Assembly (NCBI GenBank): GCA_017433415.1
Contig: JAFRHI010000023.1
Location: forward strand, 80,520 to 144,519
Source of the DNA: Bacilli bacterium
GTDB taxonomy: Bacteria > Bacillota_I > Bacilli_A > RF39 > UBA660
Direction of reading: 5' to 3'
Length of the DNA stretch: 64,000 nt
The notes under the pieces were generated by a model. It saw only the letters and a list, made by a program, of their open reading frames with translations. It did no database searches and was not told the origin of the DNA. Positions 14,019 to 34,369 of the stretch are shown here, piece by piece. Numbering within the stretch: position 1 is the stretch's first letter; each line of letters starts with the position of its first letter. The position numbers and the translations under genes were made by a program.

Positions 14019-17000
14019 ATGGATAAAATAAAGCATTTTATAAAAAATAACTTTGTTGCTATTATTGTGTCTTCTTTTCTGCTTTTTTTATTAATATATT
14101 CAGTCTCTGTAAGTAGTTTTAGTTTTGCTGCGATTTTAAAGGCGATGGGGATATATACTGAAGAAATAAAAAGTGTTGAGTTTAAATCGTCAGATTATGA
14201 TAATCCTGGTAGTTGGTATGTTGAAAAATCAGCTATTTGGATTGATAAAAATAAAGCAAAAGTGACATTTGATGTTAAGTCTATTTTAAAGACTGAAAGT
14301 AAGTATAGGAATGTTATTTTAGTTATGGATATATCTGATTCAATGAGCGGTAATAAGATTGAAAAAGCTAAAGATGATTCTATAAGCCTAGTAAATTATT
14401 TACTAGATGATTCTAATAATAAAGTTGCACTTATTACTTTTGATAGTACATCAGAAATAATTTCATATTTTACTAATGATTGTGATTCTTTGGTTGAAAA
14501 AATAAATAATCTTGCGGTAAAAGGCAATACAAACTATAATGCAGCACTAAAGAATGTGGATAAAGTTATGCAAAATTATGTTGGTGATAATAATGATCTT
14601 ATTGTGCTGTTTTTAACCGATGGTTATCCTAATGCAGAAACAACAAGTCAAGTAGGAACTTATGAGAGTTTAAAAGATAAGTATTCTAATATGACAATTA
14701 ATGGTGTGCAGTATGAAATGGGTGTAGATGTTATTGATGAAATAAAACAAATCACAGATGCTCAATGGGTGGCAAATCAAGATACATTAAGAAATGTATT
14801 GTTTGATGCCGTTCTTTCTCCAGAAGGATATAAAAAATTTGTTATAACTGATTATATTAGTGATTATTTTTCTATAGATTCTATAAATGATATTAAAGTT
14901 ACTGTTGGTGATGTAGAATTAAATAATGATAAAATTGTGTGGAATTTAGTTGATAAAACTTTTACAACGGGTAGTGATGCTAAAATGGATATAGTTTTAT
15001 CTTTAAAAGAACAATATCAAGAAGTTGAAGGATATTATCCAACAAATAAAAAAGAGAGTTTTATATATCAATTGGAAAATGATAATGAAAAAAATGTAAC
15101 AAGTTCAGAAACTCCTGTATTAAAGAATATATATGATGTTGTATATGATACTAATACGCCTGATGATTGTATATTAGATTCAATACCAAATGAAAAGTAT
15201 GCTCAATATTCTACAGTTATAAAAAAAGATAAGGAGTTAGTATGTCCAGGTTATTTGTTTAAAGGGTGGGATTTTTCCGGTGATGATGGTTTGGATATAA
15301 AAATAATTAGTAATGATGCCTTTGTAATGCCCTCACATGATGTAGTAATTAGAGCTACTTGGACAAAACAATCAATTGATAAGTCTATGAATGGTAAAGT
15401 TCATGAAAAAACTACATTATATAAAATGATTGAAAACCAATCTAATACTGTTTCGTATGTAAAAGAATATACTGGAAATCACCAAGATTCTTTAAACGTA
15501 GATGGTACGGAAAAAATATATTATTATAAAGGCAATGTTGAAGATAATAATGTAATATTTGGGGGATTTTGCTGGAAAATAATTAGAACAACAGATACAG
15601 GAGGAGTTAAACTTTTATATAATGGAAATGCAAGTAATACTTTTACATGTGATAATAGTGGTAGTGCTACTAGAGTTGGGACTTCAACATTTAATGTAAA
15701 CTGGGATTCAAAAAGTTATGTTGGATATATGCATAATAAGAATTATCCGGCTAATAGTAAAGAACAAAGACAATCGGTAACACTTTTTTCTAGTAGTAAT
15801 ATAAATGGTACACATTATTTTTCAGATGAATATGAGTATAATCAAAGTATTGCTGAAAGATATAAGTTATATGATAATCCATTAACAGAAGAAGATGAGA
15901 GATTTACGGCTGAGGAATGTTTGTTAAATAATAATTGTAATGAAATTTTAACTGGAAAATATACTTTATCTAGTTCAAATATAAATAATTATAATAATAC
16001 TATAAAATATATCGTTGGTGTTTCCGGAGAAAAAATATATTATTTTGAATTAAAGAATGGACAAACTTTAGAAGATGTTAATTCTACGTATTATGTTGGT
16101 AATAGTTATTCTGATAATGGTGATGGAACATTTACTATAATCGATGATGATGCTATTACAGAAATAAAAAAAGTTGAGTGGTTTAATAAATATGTATCAG
16201 TTAAAAATAAATATGTATGTATCAATTCTAATCCTTGTACTAATCCAATATATATAACATCTTCTTCAGCTACTGGTTATATGAATGAGAATGTTGCTAA
16301 CAATTTTATTTATGCTAATAGTTTTGATTACGTTTTAAATAACGAAACAGGAGAATATGAATATGTTCTTAAAGATACTGAAGTATCTAATAAAATGCAA
16401 TTTTGGGATTGGAATTATTATAGTAATAAAATAAGTAAAAACCATTACACATGCTTTAATACTAGTGGAAGATGTTCAAAAGTTTATTATATTTTTAATA
16501 CCAGTAATTCATCAATAGAGTATATTACATTAGAAAATGGGGAAAGTGTATCTGATGCCATTAACAATATGCTTTATGCAGATGATGTAAATCTCAACAA
16601 TTCAAATATTAAGAATGTTGTTGATGCTTGGTATGAAAATAATATGACTAATTATACAAAGTATATTGAAGATACAATTTATTGTAATGATCGAAGTGTA
16701 AGTAATTTAGCTGGTTGGAATCCTAATGGTGGTTCAACTGAGGGTAGAATAGTATTTAAATTTGAAAAAAGTTCTTATAAATGTAATCATGATACAGATA
16801 AGTTTATGGTAAGTAACGAAAAAGCAAAACTAAAATATCCTGTGGGATTATTAACAGCTAGTGAAGCTTCTTTAGGTCTTGGTACATATTTGCAGAGTGG
16901 TAATAGATGGTGGTTGATGACTCCAGCTACATGCGGTTGGAATATGCGGGCATGTATGAGTAATATTAATGTGAATTATGTGTCAAATGATTATAATTAT

Positions 17001-17102
17001 TATAACTGGGATGTTCGTCCAGTAATTTCTTTGATTCCGGGAATTGAGTATATAGAAGGTAATGGTACAGTGAATAGTCCATACATAATTGATGCTAATT
17101 AA
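14019..17102 (+). CDS. Large membrane-anchored surface protein: vWA domain, one Listeria-Bacteroides (Flg_new) repeat, and a long C-terminal region ending in a DUF6273-like module
   Basis: N-terminal TM. MIDAS motif 'VMDISDSMSG' with downstream 'FLTDG'. 'GYLFKGWDF...FVMPSHDVVIRATW' is a Flg_new repeat. The C-terminus 'LLTASEA...RWWLMTP...WDVRPVISL' resembles the WWLRSP...VRPAL pattern. Confidence 0.7.
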   Translation: MDKIKHFIKNNFVAIIVSSFLLFLLIYSVSVSSFSFAAILKAMGIYTEEIKSVEFKSSDYDNPGSWYVEKSAIWIDKNKAKVTFDVKSILKTESKYRNVILVMDISDSMSGNKIEKAKDDSISLVNYLLDDSNNKVALITFDSTSEIISYFTNDCDSLVEKINNLAVKGNTNYNAALKNVDKVMQNYVGDNNDLIVLFLTDGYPNAETTSQVGTYESLKDKYSNMTINGVQYEMGVDVIDEIKQITDAQWVANQDTLRNVLFDAVLSPEGYKKFVITDYISDYFSIDSINDIKVTVGDVELNNDKIVWNLVDKTFTTGSDAKMDIVLSLKEQYQEVEGYYPTNKKESFIYQLENDNEKNVTSSETPVLKNIYDVVYDTNTPDDCILDSIPNEKYAQYSTVIKKDKELVCPGYLFKGWDFSGDDGLDIKIISNDAFVMPSHDVVIRATWTKQSIDKSMNGKVHEKTTLYKMIENQSNTVSYVKEYTGNHQDSLNVDGTEKIYYYKGNVEDNNVIFGGFCWKIIRTTDTGGVKLLYNGNASNTFTCDNSGSATRVGTSTFNVNWDSKSYVGYMHNKNYPANSKEQRQSVTLFSSSNINGTHYFSDEYEYNQSIAERYKLYDNPLTEEDERFTAEECLLNNNCNEILTGKYTLSSSNINNYNNTIKYIVGVSGEKIYYFELKNGQTLEDVNSTYYVGNSYSDNGDGTFTIIDDDAITEIKKVEWFNKYVSVKNKYVCINSNPCTNPIYITSSSATGYMNENVANNFIYANSFDYVLNNETGEYEYVLKDTEVSNKMQFWDWNYYSNKISKNHYTCFNTSGRCSKVYYIFNTSNSSIEYITLENGESVSDAINNMLYADDVNLNNSNIKNVVDAWYENNMTNYTKYIEDTIYCNDRSVSNLAGWNPNGGSTEGRIVFKFEKSSYKCNHDTDKFMVSNEKAKLKYPVGLLTASEASLGLGTYLQSGNRWWLMTPATCGWNMRACMSNINVNYVSNDYNYYNWDVRPVISLIPGIEYIEGNGTVNSPYIIDAN

Positions 17103-17117
17103 TAAGGAGATGATTTT

Positions 17118-18956
17118 ATGAAAAGTGGTGGAAAAACAGTAAATTTTTGGATTTTATTGTTGTTTTCTGCTGCTTTTTTAATTTTATTATTAGTTAAAAA
17201 TAATAGTTATGCAAATCCTTTAGATAATGATGTTGAAGTTGAGTTGAATTCTGAACTTATCTATTATTTAAATGTGCAATATGATGGAATAGATAAAAAT
17301 GGTATTAAATCTAACGATTCTACTATAGCTCAGATTAATAGTGACATATTATTTGTAGAAGATAAGTTACCCGAGGGATTGGAATTTGAAGGATTTATTG
17401 CTACTGGTAATGGATCGATTGGAGCAGTTAAAAGAAGTGATAATTCTGTGTGCGTTGGTAAGGTAATTGATGATACTAATGAAGAAAGTATTAATACTGG
17501 TCGTTGGAATAGTGATCATACTGAGTATACATATCATGGACTTCATTATAATTTAAGTAATAGAACTGTAACTTTTAAGGTTGAAAATTTAATGGCAGGA
17601 TGTTATTTAACTGTTGGGATTAAGACAAAGACACCTTCAACAGTTGATGATCCAATAACCCCAGAGTTAGAAAAGAGAAGAGATTTTTATAATTTTGCAA
17701 CTTCTAGGGAGAGAGGATTAACTGTAAATTCTAATACAGTTCATGCTTTTATGGGAAGTGATGATATTGCTCTATATAGTGTTAAATATGAATATAGTGG
17801 TATTGTTCCTAGTAATGCTCCAAGTTTACCACAAGAAATGAATTATGCAGCTAATTCTATCGTTAATGTGGCAGCTAATGTAGAAGTAGAGGGATACACT
17901 TTTAGTGGATGGAGTACTAGTGATGTTAGTGTTAATAATAATTCATTTAAGATGCCAGAAACTAATGTTACTCTAAGAGGTTCATTTACAAGAAAAAATA
18001 CTAATAAAGTTAGTTATTTGGTAGAAGGAGTAACACCTGGTGATTATGTAATTCCGCTTGAGAAAAATTATTATCCTGGAAGTGTAGTTTCAGTAGATAT
18101 CTTAAAAGAAGGTGACGTGTTTAATGGATATAGATTCTTAGGATGGAATGCTACTGATGTAGAAGTTAGTGAAGATTTAGATTTTGTAATGCCTGATCAT
18201 GATGTTTCTTTTACTGGTAGATTTGAAGAAGTAAAATATAAAGTTACATATCAATTCTACGATGGAGTATTACCACCAAATTCTGATAGTTATTTACCTG
18301 ATACTAAAGATTATTCTCCAGGAGAGAAAGTTACACTTGAAAGTGTTAAGAGTGAACCAGATGGTTATAGTTTCTTAGGTTGGTATAAAGAAAAAGAATT
18401 TGAAATGCCTAATTCTGATGTTACAATTTACGGAGAATGGAAATTAAAATCTGGAGAGTTTAGACCAGAGATAAAAATAGAGATAATTGATCCTAAAAAG
18501 TCATATAAAGAAGGAGATACAGTAGAATTTAGGATTATTATTAAAAATACTGAAAATTATCCAATTAAAGATGTAATAGTTAAGGAACTTAATGACGGAG
18601 TAATATTTACTGATGGCAAAGGATATGAAGTTGTATCAGATCATATAGTAAATATCGATAGATTAGATCCAAATGAAAGTATCGAATTATATTCAAATTA
18701 TAAAGTTACTAATGAAAAAGATGGAGTAATTGAGAATAAAGTTGAAATTAAAGGAGCTCTAGCTGATAATAATTATGAAATGGCTAAGGGAGATTATAGT
18801 GATAGTATAGAATTTAAAATTAAACAAGATTTAATAGTTCCTGCTGATAATACGGGAATAAGAAAGTATTTAGTACCATTAGTTTTAGCTATCATCTTAA
18901 TTGTTTCAGGTATGAGTTTAGTACTTATTACAAAACAGAAAAAAGAAAAGGTATAA
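17118..18956 (+). CDS. Secreted surface protein with four Listeria-Bacteroides repeats, a DUF11-type repeat domain and a C-terminal sorting-signal-like tail
   Basis: Signal peptide ending in 'SYA'. Repeats include 'GYTFSGWS...MPETNVTLRGSF', 'GYRFLGWN...MPDHDVSFTGRF' and 'GYSFLGWY...MPNSDVTIYGEW'. 'EGDTVEFRIIIKNTENYPIKDVIVKE' is DUF11-like. The tail is 'PADNTG' + hydrophobic stretch + 'KQKKEKV'. Confidence 0.7.
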   Translation: MKSGGKTVNFWILLLFSAAFLILLLVKNNSYANPLDNDVEVELNSELIYYLNVQYDGIDKNGIKSNDSTIAQINSDILFVEDKLPEGLEFEGFIATGNGSIGAVKRSDNSVCVGKVIDDTNEESINTGRWNSDHTEYTYHGLHYNLSNRTVTFKVENLMAGCYLTVGIKTKTPSTVDDPITPELEKRRDFYNFATSRERGLTVNSNTVHAFMGSDDIALYSVKYEYSGIVPSNAPSLPQEMNYAANSIVNVAANVEVEGYTFSGWSTSDVSVNNNSFKMPETNVTLRGSFTRKNTNKVSYLVEGVTPGDYVIPLEKNYYPGSVVSVDILKEGDVFNGYRFLGWNATDVEVSEDLDFVMPDHDVSFTGRFEEVKYKVTYQFYDGVLPPNSDSYLPDTKDYSPGEKVTLESVKSEPDGYSFLGWYKEKEFEMPNSDVTIYGEWKLKSGEFRPEIKIEIIDPKKSYKEGDTVEFRIIIKNTENYPIKDVIVKELNDGVIFTDGKGYEVVSDHIVNIDRLDPNESIELYSNYKVTNEKDGVIENKVEIKGALADNNYEMAKGDYSDSIEFKIKQDLIVPADNTGIRKYLVPLVLAIILIVSGMSLVLITKQKKEKV

Positions 18957-18971
18957 TTTCCTTTTCTTTTT
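18944..18971 (+). terminator. Rho-independent terminator overlapping the end of the surface-protein gene
   Basis: AGAAAAGG-TATAATTT-CCTTTTCT followed by TTTT. An extended -10 TGATATAAT for the next gene follows at 18977-18985. Confidence 0.6.
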
Positions 18972-19006
18972 ATTCGTGATATAATTTACTAGAGTATGGT
19001 GGTAGT

Positions 19007-20734
19007 ATGAAAGAGTTTATTAAGAATATTAAATTTGCTTGGTATTATGCTAAGAGTGAAAAGAATAAGATTATTGGATTTATTATTTGTAATTTTATTC
19101 AGTTGTTTATTGGTGTAGTAGTACCTATTATTAGTGCTAGAATAATTGTTAATTTAACTGATAATAATATTAAGCAAGTAGTATTTATGGCTTTTGTACT
19201 ATTCTTAGTAGAAAGTTTACGTAATACGATATTTATGCTTGTTAGATTTTTTGCTCAAAGAACTTATCGTGAAACTTTTACTAAGTTACAATTAGATTTA
19301 GGTAAATCTATTTTAAAATTAAAAAATTCTTGTATTGATGAAAACTCTTCAGGGGTATTTATACAAAGACTTACTAATGATACTTCAAAGATTGCGGATG
19401 TTTTTAATTTAATTAATTTTAGATTTACAGATATTCTTACTAATATTGGTATATTTTGTGCCGTATTAATTATTGATTATAGAGTTTTTATTTATTTACT
19501 TTTATGGGTTGTTATAATTGGTGTTATTGAGAGAAGAAGAGTTTCTCTTCGTAATGAAAAAGATAAAGAATTTAGAAAAGAAAATGAAAATGTATCTGGT
19601 TTTGTTGGAGAATTAGTTCGTGGTGTTCGTGATATTAAGATGCTTAGTGCAGAAAAAAGTTTTTTAAAAGAGCTACATACTAAACTAATTCATCTTAATG
19701 GTACTAGATATGAAATGACTAAAGTAGATAGAGAATATAGTTTTTTTGCAGGATTTTTAAGAGATTTTTTAGACTTCAGTATGATTTGTTTATTAGTTTA
19801 TTTAATATACGTTGGACAAATGACTATTGCAGTTGCTTTGGTTGTTCATAATTATATGTCCCATGTAATGTATATTGTTAATAGTTATAGTACTTTATTA
19901 GAAGGTATAAAAGATTTTAACTTATCAACAAATAGAATATATGCAATTATTAATAGTCGTGAGTTTCCTAAAGAAAAGTTTGGTAAGAGACATTTAGAGA
20001 ATGTTAAAGGTAATTTTGAATTTAAAGATGTTGAATTTTCTTATAATGATAAAGATATTATTCTAAAAGATTTATCTTTTAAAGTTAAAAATGGATCGAC
20101 TGTTGCTTTTGTGGGGGCTAGTGGAGCTGGTAAAACGACAATATTTAATCTTTTATGTTTAATGTATGATAATTATAAAGGATTGATATCAATTGATGGA
20201 GAAGATATAAGAGAATTAGATAAAGAATCAATTCGTGATAATATTACAGTTATTAGTCAAAATCCGTATATTTTTAATTTAAGTATTCGTGATAATTTAC
20301 GTTTAGTTAAAGACGATTTAACTGAAGAAGAGATGATTGAAGCTTGCCGTGCAGCTTGCTTGGAAGAGTTTATTATGGCTTTGCCTGATAGGTATGATAC
20401 GATTGTAGGAGAAGGTGGAGTTACTCTAAGTGGTGGACAAAGACAGAGATTAGCGATTGCTAGAGCACTAGTACAAAATACTAAAATAATTCTTTTTGAT
20501 GAAGCAACAAGTGCTCTTGATAATATTACACAGACTAAGATTGCTGAAGCTATTGAAAATTTACAAGGTAATTATACAGTTTTAATTATTGCCCATCGTC
20601 TTAGTACGATAGTTAATAGTGATAGAATACTTTTCTTAAAAGATGGTAAGATTGAAACTGAAGGTACTCATGATGAATTATTAAATAATTGTTTAGAATA
20701 CAAAGAATTGTACGATGCAGAAATAGAAAAATAA
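19007..20734 (+). CDS. ABC exporter, fused permease/ATPase (MsbA/type I exporter family), no peptidase C39 domain
   Basis: Six predicted TM helices precede the ATPase. Walker A 'GASGAGKTT', signature 'LSGGQRQR', Walker B 'ILFDEATSALD', H-loop 'IIAHRL'. Confidence 0.85.
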   Translation: MKEFIKNIKFAWYYAKSEKNKIIGFIICNFIQLFIGVVVPIISARIIVNLTDNNIKQVVFMAFVLFLVESLRNTIFMLVRFFAQRTYRETFTKLQLDLGKSILKLKNSCIDENSSGVFIQRLTNDTSKIADVFNLINFRFTDILTNIGIFCAVLIIDYRVFIYLLLWVVIIGVIERRRVSLRNEKDKEFRKENENVSGFVGELVRGVRDIKMLSAEKSFLKELHTKLIHLNGTRYEMTKVDREYSFFAGFLRDFLDFSMICLLVYLIYVGQMTIAVALVVHNYMSHVMYIVNSYSTLLEGIKDFNLSTNRIYAIINSREFPKEKFGKRHLENVKGNFEFKDVEFSYNDKDIILKDLSFKVKNGSTVAFVGASGAGKTTIFNLLCLMYDNYKGLISIDGEDIRELDKESIRDNITVISQNPYIFNLSIRDNLRLVKDDLTEEEMIEACRAACLEEFIMALPDRYDTIVGEGGVTLSGGQRQRLAIARALVQNTKIILFDEATSALDNITQTKIAEAIENLQGNYTVLIIAHRLSTIVNSDRILFLKDGKIETEGTHDELLNNCLEYKELYDAEIEK

Positions 20735-20762
20735 CAAGTTCTAGACTTGTTATTTTTTTTTT
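20733..20762 (+). terminator. Rho-independent terminator after the ABC exporter
   Basis: AACAAGT-TCTAG-ACTTGTT then A + T10. The -10 TGTTATAAT of the next gene (20762-20770) abuts it. Confidence 0.8.
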
Positions 20763-20794
20763 GTTATAATAAATGGCACTTGGGGGAAAGTAAG

Positions 20795-21562
20795 ATGGAT
20801 AAACTTGATGTTAAAAATTTATATTTAGAAGTAACAAGAGATTGTACCCTTGAATGTATTCATTGTTATAGAGGAGAGAAGGAAGATAAGTATTTATCTT
20901 TTGATGTTATTGATAAAGTGTTTAGTGGCGTAGAAAAGATTCATAAACTTTTAATAACTGGAGGAGAACCTTTTTTAGCTTTAGAACAGTTAAAGAGAAT
21001 AGCTTATAATATTCAAAAAAATGCTATTAAAATAGATAGGATTACAATAGTTACTAATGGAACAATACTTTCAAAAGAGATAATTGATTTAATTGTATAT
21101 TTTTCTAATATTTCTTATCTAGAATTGGATATATCTAGTGATAAATTTCATGAAATTGAATTAGAAAGATTAGGTCTTTTAGAAAGAAAACAGAAAAATG
21201 TTGCAAGGCTTAATGAATTATTTTCTGTTGAAGAGTTGATTCCTACAAGATATCCTAAGGTTATTCATAAATTGGGGAGAGCTATTAATCTTACAACTGA
21301 AGATCTTCATTATATTAATAATCTTGGTGACGTTCAAACAAAATATGTTTTATCTTTTGATGAAGAATTAGAAAAGATGCGTGCTAAATATAGAGAATTA
21401 AGTTTTGATGGTTCTTTTATAGATGGTTATTTATATATCGATGTTAATGGTAATATTGTTCCAGCTTATGCTTCTTTTAAGGAAGAAGATGAAAATGTAT
21501 ATAGTAGTTTAGAAGGAAAAACTTTAGTAAAAGCTATTAGAGATATTAAGATTAGTAATTAA
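20795..21562 (+). CDS. Small radical SAM enzyme (255 aa) lacking SPASM/twitch cysteines
   Basis: CX3CX2C in 'TRDCTLECIHCY' and the SAM-binding 'LLITGGEPFL'. The C-terminus 'YLYIDVNGNIVPAYASF' looks like the start of a SPASM region, but no Cys residues remain. The ATG at 20795 follows GGGGGAAAG. Confidence 0.7.
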   Translation: MDKLDVKNLYLEVTRDCTLECIHCYRGEKEDKYLSFDVIDKVFSGVEKIHKLLITGGEPFLALEQLKRIAYNIQKNAIKIDRITIVTNGTILSKEIIDLIVYFSNISYLELDISSDKFHEIELERLGLLERKQKNVARLNELFSVEELIPTRYPKVIHKLGRAINLTTEDLHYINNLGDVQTKYVLSFDEELEKMRAKYRELSFDGSFIDGYLYIDVNGNIVPAYASFKEEDENVYSSLEGKTLVKAIRDIKISN

Positions 21563-21662
21563 AAACTTAAGTAAAAAATATTTTTCTTCGTATATTTTAA
21601 ATGGAACATTTAGTTGTTGGGTGTCTACCTTCTTATCTTCTAGAAGAAAGGAGGTTGATAAA

Positions 21663-21755
21663 ATGAAAACTAAAACTTTTATTGTAAAAGTTTTAAGATT
21701 TATTTCTATCATTTTATTCCTTTTAATCATTTTGATTATAGTAATAAAAAAATGA
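21663..21755 (+). CDS. Unannotated 30-aa hydrophobic peptide MKTKTFIVKVLRFISIILFLLIILIIVIKK (type I toxin-like)
   Basis: AAGGAGG (21648-21654) lies 8 nt before the ATG. The peptide has a single TM-length hydrophobic core flanked by Lys and ends in TGA. A paralogue sits in the next module. It is below the 60-aa cutoff of the ORF track. Confidence 0.6.
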   Translation: MKTKTFIVKVLRFISIILFLLIILIIVIKK

Positions 21756-21827
21756 CACTTAAGTCTATGACTTAAATGTCTACCACATTTTTAAGGTAGG
21801 CATTCAGCGTAAAAAACTGAATGTTCC
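21744..21827 (-). ncRNA. Predicted antisense (antitoxin-like) sRNA of module 1
   Basis: On the minus strand, TAAAAT (21839-21834) inside the conserved 3' block is a possible -10. The minus-strand intrinsic terminator GACATTTAAGTC-ATA-GACTTAAGTGTC + ATTTTTTTATT (21780-21744) overlaps the peptide's last codons. The end points are predictions only. Confidence 0.35.
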
Positions 21828-22015
21828 CTTTTAATTTTATGCAAGATGTCTTGCTAAATACATAGTAGCATATTTTAATATTCTTGTAAATTATTATTGA
21901 TATTTATTATAGATTAAAAATTTAAGTGAAAAAATATTTTTTTCGTATATTTTAAATGGAACATTTGATATGAGTGTCATCCTCTAATCTTTTTAAAGAA
22001 AGGAGGTAGATGATA

Positions 22016-22108
22016 ATGGAGACTAAAGCTTTTATTTTGGAAGTTTTAAAATTTCTTTCTATAATTTTATTACTTTCTACCTTACTGGTATTAGTCATAA
22101 AAAAATAG
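22016..22108 (+). CDS. Unannotated 30-aa hydrophobic peptide METKAFILEVLKFLSIILLLSTLLVLVIKK (type I toxin-like paralogue)
   Basis: AGGAGG (22001-22006) lies 9 nt before the ATG. It has the same length and the same K-x-F-I...VIKK frame as the module 1 peptide, and ends in TAG. Confidence 0.6.
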   Translation: METKAFILEVLKFLSIILLLSTLLVLVIKK

Positions 22109-22179
22109 ACACTCATTTGCATAGATAGAGTGTCATACCTAATATAGAGGAGACATTTATGCAGACTCAAATGTTCCTC
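22097..22179 (-). ncRNA. Predicted antisense (antitoxin-like) sRNA of module 2
   Basis: Minus-strand TAAAAT (22191-22186) is a possible -10. The minus-strand terminator is GACACTC-13 nt-GAGTGTC + TATTTTTTTAT (22134-22097). The end points are predictions only. Confidence 0.35.
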
Positions 22180-22262
22180 TTTTTAATTTTATGCAAGAGG
22201 TCTTGCTAAATACATAGTAGCATAAAAGTAGTTTGTTGTCAAAATACACTCTCTAAAAACAA

Positions 22263-22291
22263 TTGACATTTATTTGGAAAAGATATATATT
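22263..22291 (+). promoter_or_regulatory. Sigma-A promoter of the glyQS leader
   Basis: TTGACA (22263-22268), a 17-nt spacer, then TATATT (22286-22291). Confidence 0.65.
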
Positions 22292-22297
22292 TATTAC

Positions 22298-22414
22298 ATA
22301 AGTGTGATGACGGGTGTGGAAAGCCAAGAGCAGTATATTAAGAGTTGATTCTTCTAGAATAAGTAAGGTGGAACCGCGGAGAAATTCGTCCTTACAAATT
22401 CTAGAAGTTTTTTT
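22298..22414 (+). promoter_or_regulatory. Compact T-box leader (glycine-type acceptor match) with terminator
   Basis: T-box sequence AAGTAAGGTGGAACCGCGG (22361-22379). The antiterminator is GTAAGG / bulge TGGAACC / GCGGA-GAAA-TTCGT / CCTTAC (22363-22395). The helix extension is TTCTAGAAT (22352-22360) / ATTCTAGAA (22398-22406), followed by T7 (22408-22414). The UGGA bulge fits a U73 tRNA-Gly. A TGTGATGA K-turn-like motif lies at 22303-22310. Confidence 0.7.
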
Positions 22415-22429
22415 GTTAAAGGAGGTATT

Positions 22430-22750
22430 ATGAAATTATTTATTAGTGGATATATTAATAATTTTCCTGAAAAATTTAATGATTTTGAACTTGCTGATAA
22501 TATTAGTGAAGCTAATATGGTATTAATATTACCTGGTGGAGTCGGGACGATGCATGACTTATTTAAATCTGTTAATGATGGTAAAAGAGTAATTGTTTAT
22601 AATAAGGATTTTTTCTATACTCCGATAATAAAGAAATTGTTTGAATTGTATGAAGAAGGAATTGAATTAAGACGTCCATCTGAATATATGGAGATAGAAA
22701 GTGAAATGGATGAAATAATTAAGAAATTGGAGGATAATAAATATGAGTAA
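22430..22750 (+). CDS. Small LOG/TIGR00725-like Rossmann-fold protein (truncated relative to LOG family)
   Basis: 106 aa. 'ANMVLILPGGVGTMHDLF' resembles the PGGxGTxxE motif of LOG / lysine-decarboxylase-like proteins. RBS AAAGGAGG. Its stop overlaps the glyQS start (ATATGAGTAA). Confidence 0.45.
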   Translation: MKLFISGYINNFPEKFNDFELADNISEANMVLILPGGVGTMHDLFKSVNDGKRVIVYNKDFFYTPIIKKLFELYEEGIELRRPSEYMEIESEMDEIIKKLEDNKYE

Positions 22751-24113
22751 TTTAACAATGGAAAAGTTAGTTAATTATTGCAAACAATATGGTTTTATAT
22801 TTCAAGGAAGTGAAATATATGGAGGACTTGCAAATACTTGGGATTATGGGCCATTAGGTAGTAGGTTAAAGAATAATATTAAGGATTCATGGAGAAAAAG
22901 ATTTATTCAAGAACGTCCTAATGCTTATGAAGTTGATGCGGCAATTTTGATGCATCCAAGAGTTTGGGAAGCAAGTGGTCATGTTGCTAGTTTTTCTGAT
23001 CCTTTAATAGATTGTAAGCATTGTAAATCTAGACAAAGAACAGATGAACTAATTGATGGATTTGATTCTAGTGCTCACGCTGATGGTATGAGTGAAGAAG
23101 AGATGATGTCATATATTAAGAAACATAAAGTACCATGTCCTAAATGTGGAAAAAGTGATTGGACTGATATTCGTCAATTTAAGCTTATGTTTGAGACTAA
23201 ACGAGGAGTAGTTGAAGATGGTAAAAATTTAGTTTATTTAAGACCAGAAAATGCCCAAGGAGAGTATGTTAATTTCTTAAATGTACAAAGAACTATGCGA
23301 GCAAAGCTTCCATTTAGTATTGGACAAATTGGTAAAGCTTTTAGAAATGAAATTACTCCAGGTAACTTTACTTTTAGAACTATTGAATTTGAACAAATGG
23401 AATATCAAACTTTCTGTAAGGAAGGAACTGATAGTGATTTATATAATTATTTTAAAGAATATGGTAAGAAGTATTATATGGATTTAGGTATTCCAGAAGA
23501 AAAATTAAGATTTCATGATCATGAAAAGTTAGCACATTATGCTAAAGAAGCTTGTGATATTGAATATAACTTTTGTTTCGGATGGGGAGAGATTAATGGT
23601 ACACATAATCGTACTAATTACGATCTTAGTCGTCATCAAGAATATTCTACTGTATCACAAGAATATTTAGATCCTGAAACTAATGAGAAATTTATTCCAT
23701 ATGTAATAGAATCTACTTATGGATGTGACAGAACAACACTTGCGGTACTAGATAATAGTTACTGTGAAGAACAATTAGAAAATGGTGAAACAAGAGAAGT
23801 TATGAAGTTTATTCCATATCTTGCACCATATAAAGTATGTGTACTTCCTCTTGCTAAAAAATATCATAGTGAAAAGGCAGTAGAAATATATAATGAATTA
23901 GCAAAGCACTTTATGACTAGTTACGATGAGACAGGTTCAATTGGAAAAAGATATAGAAGAAGTGATGCTATTGGTACTCCTTGGTGTATTACAGTGGATG
24001 ATGAAACTATTAATAAAGGAACTGTCACAGTAAGAGATAGAGATACTATGGAACAAATAACTTTAAAAGTAGATAAAGTTGTTGAGTATATAAACAAGAG
24101 AATTCAATTTTAG
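22743..24113 (+). CDS. glyQS: Glycine--tRNA ligase, homodimeric alpha2 type
   Basis: 456 aa. 'YGFIFQGSEIYGGLANTWDYGPLG', 'FRNEITPGNFTFRTIEFEQME', 'GCDRT' and 'SIGKRYRRSDAIGTPWCITVD' fit GlyRS. Confidence 0.92.
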   Translation: MSNLTMEKLVNYCKQYGFIFQGSEIYGGLANTWDYGPLGSRLKNNIKDSWRKRFIQERPNAYEVDAAILMHPRVWEASGHVASFSDPLIDCKHCKSRQRTDELIDGFDSSAHADGMSEEEMMSYIKKHKVPCPKCGKSDWTDIRQFKLMFETKRGVVEDGKNLVYLRPENAQGEYVNFLNVQRTMRAKLPFSIGQIGKAFRNEITPGNFTFRTIEFEQMEYQTFCKEGTDSDLYNYFKEYGKKYYMDLGIPEEKLRFHDHEKLAHYAKEACDIEYNFCFGWGEINGTHNRTNYDLSRHQEYSTVSQEYLDPETNEKFIPYVIESTYGCDRTTLAVLDNSYCEEQLENGETREVMKFIPYLAPYKVCVLPLAKKYHSEKAVEIYNELAKHFMTSYDETGSIGKRYRRSDAIGTPWCITVDDETINKGTVTVRDRDTMEQITLKVDKVVEYINKRIQF

Positions 24114-34148: not shown

Positions 34149-34369
34149 TATAATTTGTGTATCGACTGTGAAGAGGAGTAGTAATAAACTTAATTATTTT
34201 TAGAGAGATTGTGGTTGGTGGAAACAATTAATAATAGTTTATGAATTCGCCTGTGGAGTTCTTATTAATAGTAAGCGTATTTCTTGCGTTAAAAGATTTG
34301 AGTGTATAGTAAAGCTATGAAATAAGGTGGTACCGCGAGTAATTCGTCCTTATGAATAGCTTTTTTTTT
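34146..34369 (+). promoter_or_regulatory. Promoter plus Phe-specific T-box leader with terminator
   Basis: Extended -10 TGATATAAT (34146-34154). K-turn-like TGTGAAGA. AG bulge TAGAGAG (34201-34207). Distal loop GGTTGGTGGAAAC (34212-34224). Specifier region GAA-TTC-G (TTC at 34246-34248). T-box AATAAGGTGGTACCGCG (34321-34337) with a UGGU bulge matching A73 of tRNA-Phe. T9 at 34361-34369. Confidence 0.85.

Follow-up and report, generated by a model that had tools for sequence, protein, structure and literature searches.

Two tandem modules at positions 21560-22262 of a 64,000-nucleotide (nt) stretch of DNA from a Bacilli bacterium (lineage RF39, UBA660; assembly GCA_017433415.1, contig JAFRHI010000023.1, positions 80,520 to 144,519), the whole of which is referred to here as the window, are each probably a type I toxin-antitoxin-like cassette in which the toxin mRNA is locked by its own structure and controlled by an antisense RNA. 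As judged from their sequences, the modules form a new family of a known kind, the architecture of which is nearest to that of bsrG/SR4. Each module contains a promoter, a structured leader, a 30-amino-acid (aa) hydrophobic open reading frame (ORF) that ends in two lysines (KK), and a convergent RNA gene on the minus strand. Computational comparison of the family establishes that the ORF, both promoters and both terminators are conserved, and that the hairpins and a long helix joining the two ends of the mRNA (the 5'-3' helix) covary.

Together the modules occupy positions 21567-22242 of the window, at ~350 nt each, and they are 84% identical across this length, although their 3' untranslated regions differ apart from the final ~25 nt. 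The blocks most conserved between them are a 5' block (TTCGTATATTTTAAATGGAACATTT), the Shine-Dalgarno (SD) sequence with the ORF, and a 3' block (ATGCAAGAnGTCTTGCTAAATACATAGTAGCATA); the 5' and 3' blocks each occur exactly twice in the window, against 0 occurrences expected by chance. The parts of both modules are as follows.

Module 1
21567-21596, plus strand: toxin promoter read from the sequence, TTAAGT, 18-nt spacer, TATATT; start predicted at about G21603
21603-21838, plus strand: predicted toxin mRNA, ~236 nt, with leader, ORF and 3' untranslated region (3' UTR), terminator and T-run at the end
21603-21631, plus strand: 5' strand of the long-range helix, GGAACAUUUAGUUGUUGGGUGUCUACCUU, holding the anti-SD-like CUACCUU; folding and family covariation
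21650-21654, plus strand: SD sequence GGAGG, predicted to be paired
21663-21755, plus strand: toxin ORF MKTKTFIVKVLRFISIILFLLIILIIVIKK, 30 aa, TGA stop, subfamily B
21746-21855, minus strand (21855 to 21746): predicted antisense RNA, ~110 nt; promoter and terminator scans, fold
21780 to 21754, minus strand: antisense terminator hairpin GACATTTAAGTC-ATA-GACTTAAGTGTC, 12 pairs, then ATTTTTTTAT; terminator scan
21793-21838, plus strand: sense terminator AAGG..GCAUUCAG-loop-CUGAAUG..CCUU with T-run; local fold -11.7 kcal/mol
21841-21854, minus strand: 5'-terminal hairpin of the antisense RNA, GCAAGAcaUCUUGC, from the fold; relatives keep CAAG-N4-CTTG
21862-21890, minus strand: antisense promoter, -35 box TTTACA (21890-21885), 17-nt spacer, TGcTACTAT (21870-21862); promoter scan

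Module 2
21922-21951, plus strand: toxin promoter, TTAAGT, 18-nt spacer, TATATT; start predicted at about G21958
21958-22190, plus strand: predicted toxin mRNA, ~233 nt; folding
21958-21986, plus strand: 5' strand of the long-range helix, GGAACAUUUGAUAUGAGUGUCAUCCUCUA, holding the anti-SD UCCUCU
22002-22006, plus strand: SD sequence GGAGG
22016-22108, plus strand: toxin ORF METKAFILEVLKFLSIILLLSTLLVLVIKK, 30 aa, TAG stop, subfamily A
22099-22207, minus strand (22207 to 22099): predicted antisense RNA, ~109 nt; fold
22134 to 22108, minus strand: antisense terminator GACACUC, 13-nt loop, GAGUGUC, then TATTTTTTTAT; sequence, fold and family covariation
22145-22190, plus strand: sense terminator AGAGGAGACAUUU-loop-AAAUGUUCCUCU with T-run; folding
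22214-22242, minus strand: antisense promoter, -35 box TTGACA (22242-22237), 17-nt spacer, TGcTACTAT (22222-22214); scan, 10/12 matches plus TG

A family of modules in gut bacteria

In both modules the peptide has a basic N-terminus, a single hydrophobic helix (a stretch of ~17 residues) and a KK C-terminus, and its ORF carries its own promoter and GGAGG SD, both of which are conserved in the family. Relatives were sought with the two peptides joined as one protein query, which returned 12 small ORFs, mostly frameshifted or over-extended; on the contigs of these matches the whole module of ~290 nt is kept at 70-80% identity, in unrelated gene neighbourhoods. A gapped DNA pattern (SD, MKTKTF, and an A-run plus GACAC) matched all relatives from the protein search and, in a one-genome-per-species collection, at least 120 stretches. 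An exact 22-mer of the conserved 3' block gave no match in the genome-contig collection, because the relatives differ at that site, and blastn of the modules against plasmid and phage collections gave none either. Altogether 121 distinct full modules were recovered, in 110 of which the peptide is exactly 30 aa long. The ORF looks coding: as would be expected of a gene for a hydrophobic peptide, variation is lowest at codon position 2 (entropy 0.23; positions 1 and 3 have 0.54 and 0.65).

The relatives fall into a subfamily A, in which the peptide ends in ...ILLLSTLLVLAIKK with a TAG stop, as in module 2, and a subfamily B, in which it ends in ...ILFLLIIMIVVIKK with a TGA stop, as in module 1. 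The genomes that carry them are, with few exceptions, metagenome-assembled genomes (MAGs) of uncultured gut "Bacilli", "Tenericutes" or "Firmicutes" sampled in rabbit, mouse, goat and human (Hadza), one of them being a closed 1.34-Mb chromosome, and the identical locus is present on ENA metagenome contigs. Tandem arrays of 2-4 copies, some decayed, were found with an nhmmer profile at 28 of 137 loci.

Some observations on single loci can be added. Arrays with partial or decayed copies lie at L051 3847-5104, L046 4463-6061, L134 2863-3959 and L088 4586-5001, and L088 also shows a tandem expansion of ~77 nt within the 3' UTR of a module. On L001 (2095-2283, which is window ~21524-21730, minus strand) the gene caller called a 62-aa ORF on the opposite strand and ignored the peptides. 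Protein databases hold the peptide almost only as frameshifted or over-extended versions, and one call of the Joint Genome Institute (JGI) translates the TGA stop of subfamily B as Trp; in the window, TGA behaves as a stop.

A predicted antisense RNA gene

A convergent cis-antisense small RNA gene, with its own promoter and with a terminator that overlaps the stop codon of the peptide, is supported by sequence comparison. Downstream of every module lies a minus-strand promoter with a -35 box TTGnnA and a TG-extended -10 box, mostly TGnTATTAT; its spacer is 17 nt in 115 of the 121 modules and the TG extension is present in 117. The toxin promoter, with the consensus TTGnnn-17-TATAAT, is less conserved, carrying TG in 30/121 modules, and the first base after its -10 box stands at -65/-66 from the ATG in 74/121. 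Of the two, the antisense promoter is the stronger-looking. Its transcript is predicted to start ~7 nt downstream of the -10 box and to end at the terminator hairpin (hairpin 1) plus U7, and would be perfectly complementary to ~92 nt of the toxin 3' UTR. In module 1 this RNA would consist, in order, of a 5' hairpin, a middle one complementary to the sense terminator, the terminator hairpin and U7 (fold with a minimum free energy (MFE) of -32.9 kcal/mol, z = -6.67, three hairpins), and that of module 2 likewise folds into three hairpins followed by U7 (MFE -29.7 kcal/mol, z = -4.27). The 5' hairpin CAAG-N4-CTTG is conserved in relatives. The terminator scan missed the minus-strand hairpin of module 2 because the loop of this hairpin exceeds 8 nt.

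Hairpin 1 shows compensatory pairs in the family as a whole (184:211 UA50/CG48; 185:210 AU71/UA30) and within subfamily B (186:209 AT49/TA17; 188:207 TA39/CG21). Its non-Watson-Crick cells, when read on the plus strand, comprise 79 A·C vs 6 G·U, and the A·C cells become G·U wobbles in minus-strand RNA only, a bias which indicates that hairpin 1 has been selected as a structure of the antisense RNA. An original prediction, made from the letters of this stretch alone, had proposed an antisense RNA that terminates at the 3' end of the peptide gene; promoter conservation, the covariation of hairpin 1 and the strand-specific wobbles all agree with this, and every motif that it listed, including both minus-strand terminators over the stop codons, is present where it had been placed. 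Its start was set too close. The TAAAAT at 21839-21834 and 22191-22186, which had been taken for a -10 box, has no -35 partner and sits in the U-tract of the sense terminator, and since the conserved promoter lies ~25 nt farther upstream, an RNA of ~110 nt is to be expected rather than the ~80 nt first proposed.

The A7 run within the ...I-K-K codons (21746-21752 in module 1, 22099-22105 in module 2) is also the U7 tract of the antisense RNA, and its length is 7 in 110/121 modules. It is 6 or 8 in 10/121 relatives (A6 in 7, A8 in 3) and 5 in one more. Since the KK codons are the U-tract of the antitoxin terminator, slippage at A7 would alter the toxin C-terminus and antitoxin termination together. 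The variant runs give frameshifted C-terminal extensions of 34-70 aa (L003 4001-4105, L006 4001-4213, L007 4001-4129), and could equally be homopolymer assembly errors.

A toxin mRNA predicted to be closed

The predicted toxin mRNAs are strongly structured, with an MFE of -72.4 kcal/mol (z = -8.31) in module 1 (21603-21838) and of -66.7 kcal/mol (z = -6.64) in module 2 (21957-22190), and in both the MFE and centroid structures contain a long helix that pairs the first ~29 nt with the last ~35 nt. In this helix GGAACAUUU, conserved at the 5' end, pairs with AAAUGUUCC, likewise conserved, just before the T-run, and the partner of the leader's GUGUC-xx-CC(UC) is AAGGUAGGCA in module 1 and AGAGGAGACA in module 2. 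These latter segments hold what had been described as SD-like copies, namely AAGGTAGG (21793-21800) and AGAGGAG (22146-22152), and are better understood as the lower 5' arm of the sense terminator, which in both modules doubles as the 3' strand of the 5'-3' helix.

Across the family the helix comprises ~25 bp, and 114/121 modules have at least 20 such pairs in their MFE structure. Expected 5'-3' pairs number 25.6 in native sequences, 1.9 when the 5' end is shuffled and 12.0 when it is taken from the other subfamily, and the closed state is favoured over the independent-terminator state in 117/118 modules, with a median advantage of 16 kcal/mol. In alignment A2, 93.4% of cells are paired vs 88.0% in column shuffles and 34-46% in a slid register, and the covariation score of 0.174 (vs 0.094) was reached by 0/500 shuffles. 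Compensatory pairs include 45:243 (UA67/GC28) and 46:242 (AU62/UG34/CG8), as well as 29:275 in subfamily A (GC26/AU18), which supports the long-range helix specifically, since column 275 lies outside the terminator stem. Non-Watson-Crick cells, again read on the plus strand, number 113 G·U vs 35 A·C, as fits an RNA of that strand. Compensatory changes across relatives are thus found both in the terminator hairpin and in the helix between the leader and its reverse complement.

The SD is predicted to be paired (family median unpaired probability 0.08), buried by a neighbouring anti-SD (CCUCC-like) stretch. When the ~92 nt covered by the antisense RNA were blocked, at positions set by alignment columns, and the mRNA was refolded, the unpaired probability of the 5' end rose from 0.00 to 0.49, SD:anti-SD pairs increased from 2.3 to 4.6 of 5, and the unpaired probability of the SD fell from 0.08 to 0.01.

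A proposed mechanism and its weak points

These structures suggest how a module might work. The stored toxin mRNA would be closed and inert, with its 5' end held by the terminator region and its SD occluded. The antisense RNA would pair with the 3' UTR, and the long duplex, by analogy with bsrG/SR4 and txpA/RatA, would be a substrate for RNase III; at the same time, pairing would strip the mRNA 5' end from the closing helix, expose it to nucleases, and set the anti-SD free to pair fully with the SD. Through duplex formation, 5' exposure and SD clamping, no toxin would be made in the presence of the antisense RNA. Upon loss of the antisense RNA, some processing or refolding event would have to expose the SD. 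The scheme presupposes that both RNAs are synthesized, that the peptide is toxic, that RNase III acts on the duplex and that the refolding step occurs.

Because the terminator hairpin itself supplies the 3' strand of the closing helix, a single sequence serves as terminator, as lock and as antisense target, and the 5' end of the mRNA is similar to the antisense RNA. It is conceivable, though less likely than not, that this amounts to a three-state switch in which the mRNA 5' end and the antisense RNA are mimics competing for one 3' target, the terminator. In the first state the terminator hairpin would form during mRNA synthesis; in the second the stored mRNA would be held by the closed 5'-3' helix; in the third the mRNA would be bound by the antisense RNA, with the freed 5' end clamping the anti-SD on the SD and open to 5'-dependent RNases.

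Several points weigh against the cassette interpretation. The peptide has no match beyond chance in Pfam and NCBIfam (E <= 10), PHROGs or PADLOC, and its toxicity is putative. The RNA matches no antitoxin family among all 4227 families of Rfam, at the gathering threshold or at E <= 10; a hit to the Rfam family "Betaproteobacteria toxic sRNA" (E = 0.18) was rejected as a chance match. The start sites and the 3' ends of both transcripts are predicted from sequence, and the predicted change in SD pairing is modest and derives from thermodynamic modelling of an AT-rich RNA. Since the sense terminator cannot form together with the 5'-3' helix, kinetics may keep the mRNA from reaching the closed state in vivo. 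Lastly, much of the covariation separates just two subfamilies and hence represents few independent events.

Alternative explanations

An alternative possibility, which we regard as unlikely, is that the antisense RNA acts as in par/Fst, mainly in a trans-like manner on the translation initiation region and through module-specific direct repeats. This had been the reading of the original prediction, and the repeats on which it was built do exist in both modules of the window: TGTCTACC at 21622-21629 and 21777-21784 in module 1, and GAGTGTCATCCTCTAAT at 21972-21988 vs GAGTGTCATACCTAAT at 22128-22143 in module 2. An 8-nt direct repeat is by itself weak evidence, and in relatives only the (A/G)TGTC core is conserved. 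The 3' UTR consists, in order, of the right arm of hairpin 1, ending in (A/G)TGTC like the leader, a variable spacer, and, reverse-complementary to the leader, the sense terminator's 5' arm; in the two window modules the likeness to the leader happens to continue into the spacer, as TGTCTACC in one module and GAGTGTCAT.CC.TAAT in the other. Over the six positions that follow TGTC, the direct copy is variable and matches the leader on average at 1.3/6 in subfamily A and 2.8/6 in subfamily B, whereas the reverse-complementary segment is conserved, matches at 2.5-4.4 of 6 positions ungapped, and changes along with the leader (subfamily B, TACC../..GGTA; subfamily A, G(U)CCUC/GAGGC).

Antisense-leader duplexes are ~5.5 kcal/mol better than those with shuffled antisense RNA (-29.0 vs -23.5 kcal/mol, better in 112/121 modules), values that are comparative only, as RNAduplex permits very large internal loops and its absolute energies are not meaningful. 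This advantage is not specific to a module, however, since the cognate antisense RNA is no better than that of the other subfamily (-29.0 vs -28.8 kcal/mol; cognate better in 58/121). A subfamily A antisense RNA could pair through GCCUCU with GGAGGU at the SD (L003 is an example), but subfamily B antisense RNAs are without a good anti-SD. The overlap of ~92 nt and the two separate terminators, with no shared bidirectional terminator, also differ from par, and neither the Fst_toxin family (Pfam and NCBIfam at E <= 10) nor an RNAII-type RNA (all Rfam families, E <= 10) was matched. With direct repeats that are variable and a cognate pairing that has no energy advantage, par-like complementarity to the translation initiation region is not supported as a conserved mechanism.

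It is slightly less probable again that the modules are no toxin-antitoxin system and that the ORF encodes an ordinary small membrane protein, such as an accessory subunit or a precursor peptide for a radical S-adenosylmethionine (radical-SAM) enzyme and an ATP-binding cassette (ABC) exporter, the antisense RNA being incidental or hairpin 1 serving as a bidirectional terminator. Many small hydrophobic proteins are not toxins, the toxicity of this one being putative, and the window modules do lie after a radical-SAM gene and an ABC exporter. Their relatives, in contrast, occupy unrelated neighbourhoods without radical-SAM genes, each module has its own promoters and terminators, and the minus-strand promoter is as well conserved as the ORF. 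The peptide also lacks the Cys/Ser/Thr-rich core typical of radical-SAM substrates among ribosomally synthesized and post-translationally modified peptides (RiPPs), and a RiPP precursor for the neighbouring radical-SAM gene was rejected, the linkage not being conserved in relatives. Tandem copies with decay, together with elaborate SD occlusion, are characteristic of type I toxins (PMC8594479).

A miniature mobile DNA element, in which the complementarity between the 5' GGAACATT... and the ...AATGTTCC 3' would be a terminal inverted repeat of DNA, would account for a multi-copy module, varied insertion contexts and inverted termini of 12-29 bp, but is very improbable and, as an element like a miniature inverted-repeat transposable element (MITE), was rejected, given that the termini tolerate G·U and not A·C in the plus-strand sense (113 vs 35), which points to selection at the RNA level, that both promoters lie outside the inverted repeat and are still conserved, that a conserved coding ORF lies inside, and that no target-site duplications were seen, although none were searched for.

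Genomic surroundings

Upstream of the modules, window 14019-21562 holds a gene cluster that may be a locus for a secreted or modified product. It encodes a 1027-aa VWA-domain protein, a 612-aa InlB-B-repeat/SHIRT/DUF11 surface protein, an ABC exporter (19007-20734) and a small radical-SAM protein (20747-21562), and is not linked to the modules in other genomes. On the other side, a weak Rfam match to a T-box leader (22222-22396; 37.2 bits, gathering score 93) precedes a 106-aa LOG/'lysine decarboxylase'-like ORF (22430-22750) and glyQS (22743-24113). The T-box promoter is likely TTGACA-17-TATATT at 22263-22291, back-to-back with the antisense promoter of module 2, so that on its 5' side the Rfam alignment probably extends over sequence that is not T-box. 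Elsewhere in the window, 13 tRNA genes are clustered at 1221-2306, and a second, strong T-box leader (121.7 bits) lies at 34159-34354.

Significance and comparison with known type I systems

To our knowledge, nearly all known type I toxin-antitoxin systems come from cultured Proteobacteria, Bacillus, Staphylococcus, Enterococcus, Clostridioides and Helicobacter. With the family described here, their range would also take in uncultured gut Bacilli/"Tenericutes" lineages that have small genomes, and a literature search found no paper on the family and none linking type I toxin-antitoxin systems to the host lineages. The family is widespread, occurring in more than 120 species-level genomes and often in tandem, yet invisible to annotation, as gene callers skip the 30-aa ORF or choose the wrong strand. 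The 121 natural variants provide a comparative dataset of a bsrG/SR4-like design in which terminator, 5'-3' lock and antisense target would be one sequence, and such a set may be of use for RNA-switch engineering as well as for the annotation of MAGs.

The nearest known architecture is that of bsrG/SR4. In the bsrG mRNA, nt 1-35 pair with nt 232-262 as helix P1, and the SD lies in a 4-bp duplex which SR4 binding lengthens to 8 bp; SR4 is complementary to the bsrG 3' end and promotes RNase III-dependent decay, and the antitoxin promoter is the stronger one (PMC3834814). More generally, an antisense RNA that overlaps the mRNA 3' end, SD/anti-SD pairing and 5'-3' interactions are found in the Gram-positive families (PMC8594479). 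The modules share with bsrG/SR4 a short hydrophobic toxin with terminal lysines, a convergent antisense RNA against the mRNA 3' end, an antitoxin promoter that looks the stronger, a long helix joining the first ~35 nt to a 3' segment and, in silico, an SD in a short duplex lengthened upon antitoxin binding. They differ in several respects. No similarity of peptide or RNA was detected, as judged by NCBIfam, Pfam and Rfam models rather than by direct pairwise comparison with BsrG. The antisense RNA is predicted at ~110 nt, whereas SR4 has ~180 nt, and the overlap is confined to the last three codons and the stop, whereas that of SR4 takes in much of the ORF. Helix P1 and the terminator SL4 of bsrG are adjacent but separate, while here a strand of the helix is the terminator, so that the two are alternatives. 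Finally, bsrG/SR4 belongs to Bacillus prophages and the present family to small-genome uncultured gut Bacilli.

The txpA/RatA system shares the cis-antisense RNA over the 3' end of the toxin mRNA, but there is no match to the Rfam model of RatA, the overlap with the ORF is minimal here, and the toxin is half as long, TxpA having 59 aa. In Bacillus subtilis the antisense RNA of this pair overlaps the toxin mRNA 3' end and promotes degradation of the mRNA (PMC3834814). With fst/RNAII (par) of Enterococcus faecalis pAD1 the modules have in common convergent RNAs with the antitoxin on the 3' side, a small hydrophobic toxin and a 5' structure that limits translation. In par, the interaction that blocks translation takes place outside the overlap, via 5' direct repeats and the shared terminator (PMC8594479; PMC3834814), whereas the direct repeats here are not conserved and give no cognate advantage, and there are two separate terminators.

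In hok/Sok and aapA1/IsoA1, the full-length mRNA is made inert by a 5'-3' long-distance interaction together with SD occlusion (PMC8594479), and both of these features are predicted for the toxin mRNA described here. The antisense RNAs of those systems, however, lie inside the mRNA and target its 5' region, with activation by 3' trimming, whereas in the present modules the antisense RNA would target the 3' segment that holds the mRNA 5' end.

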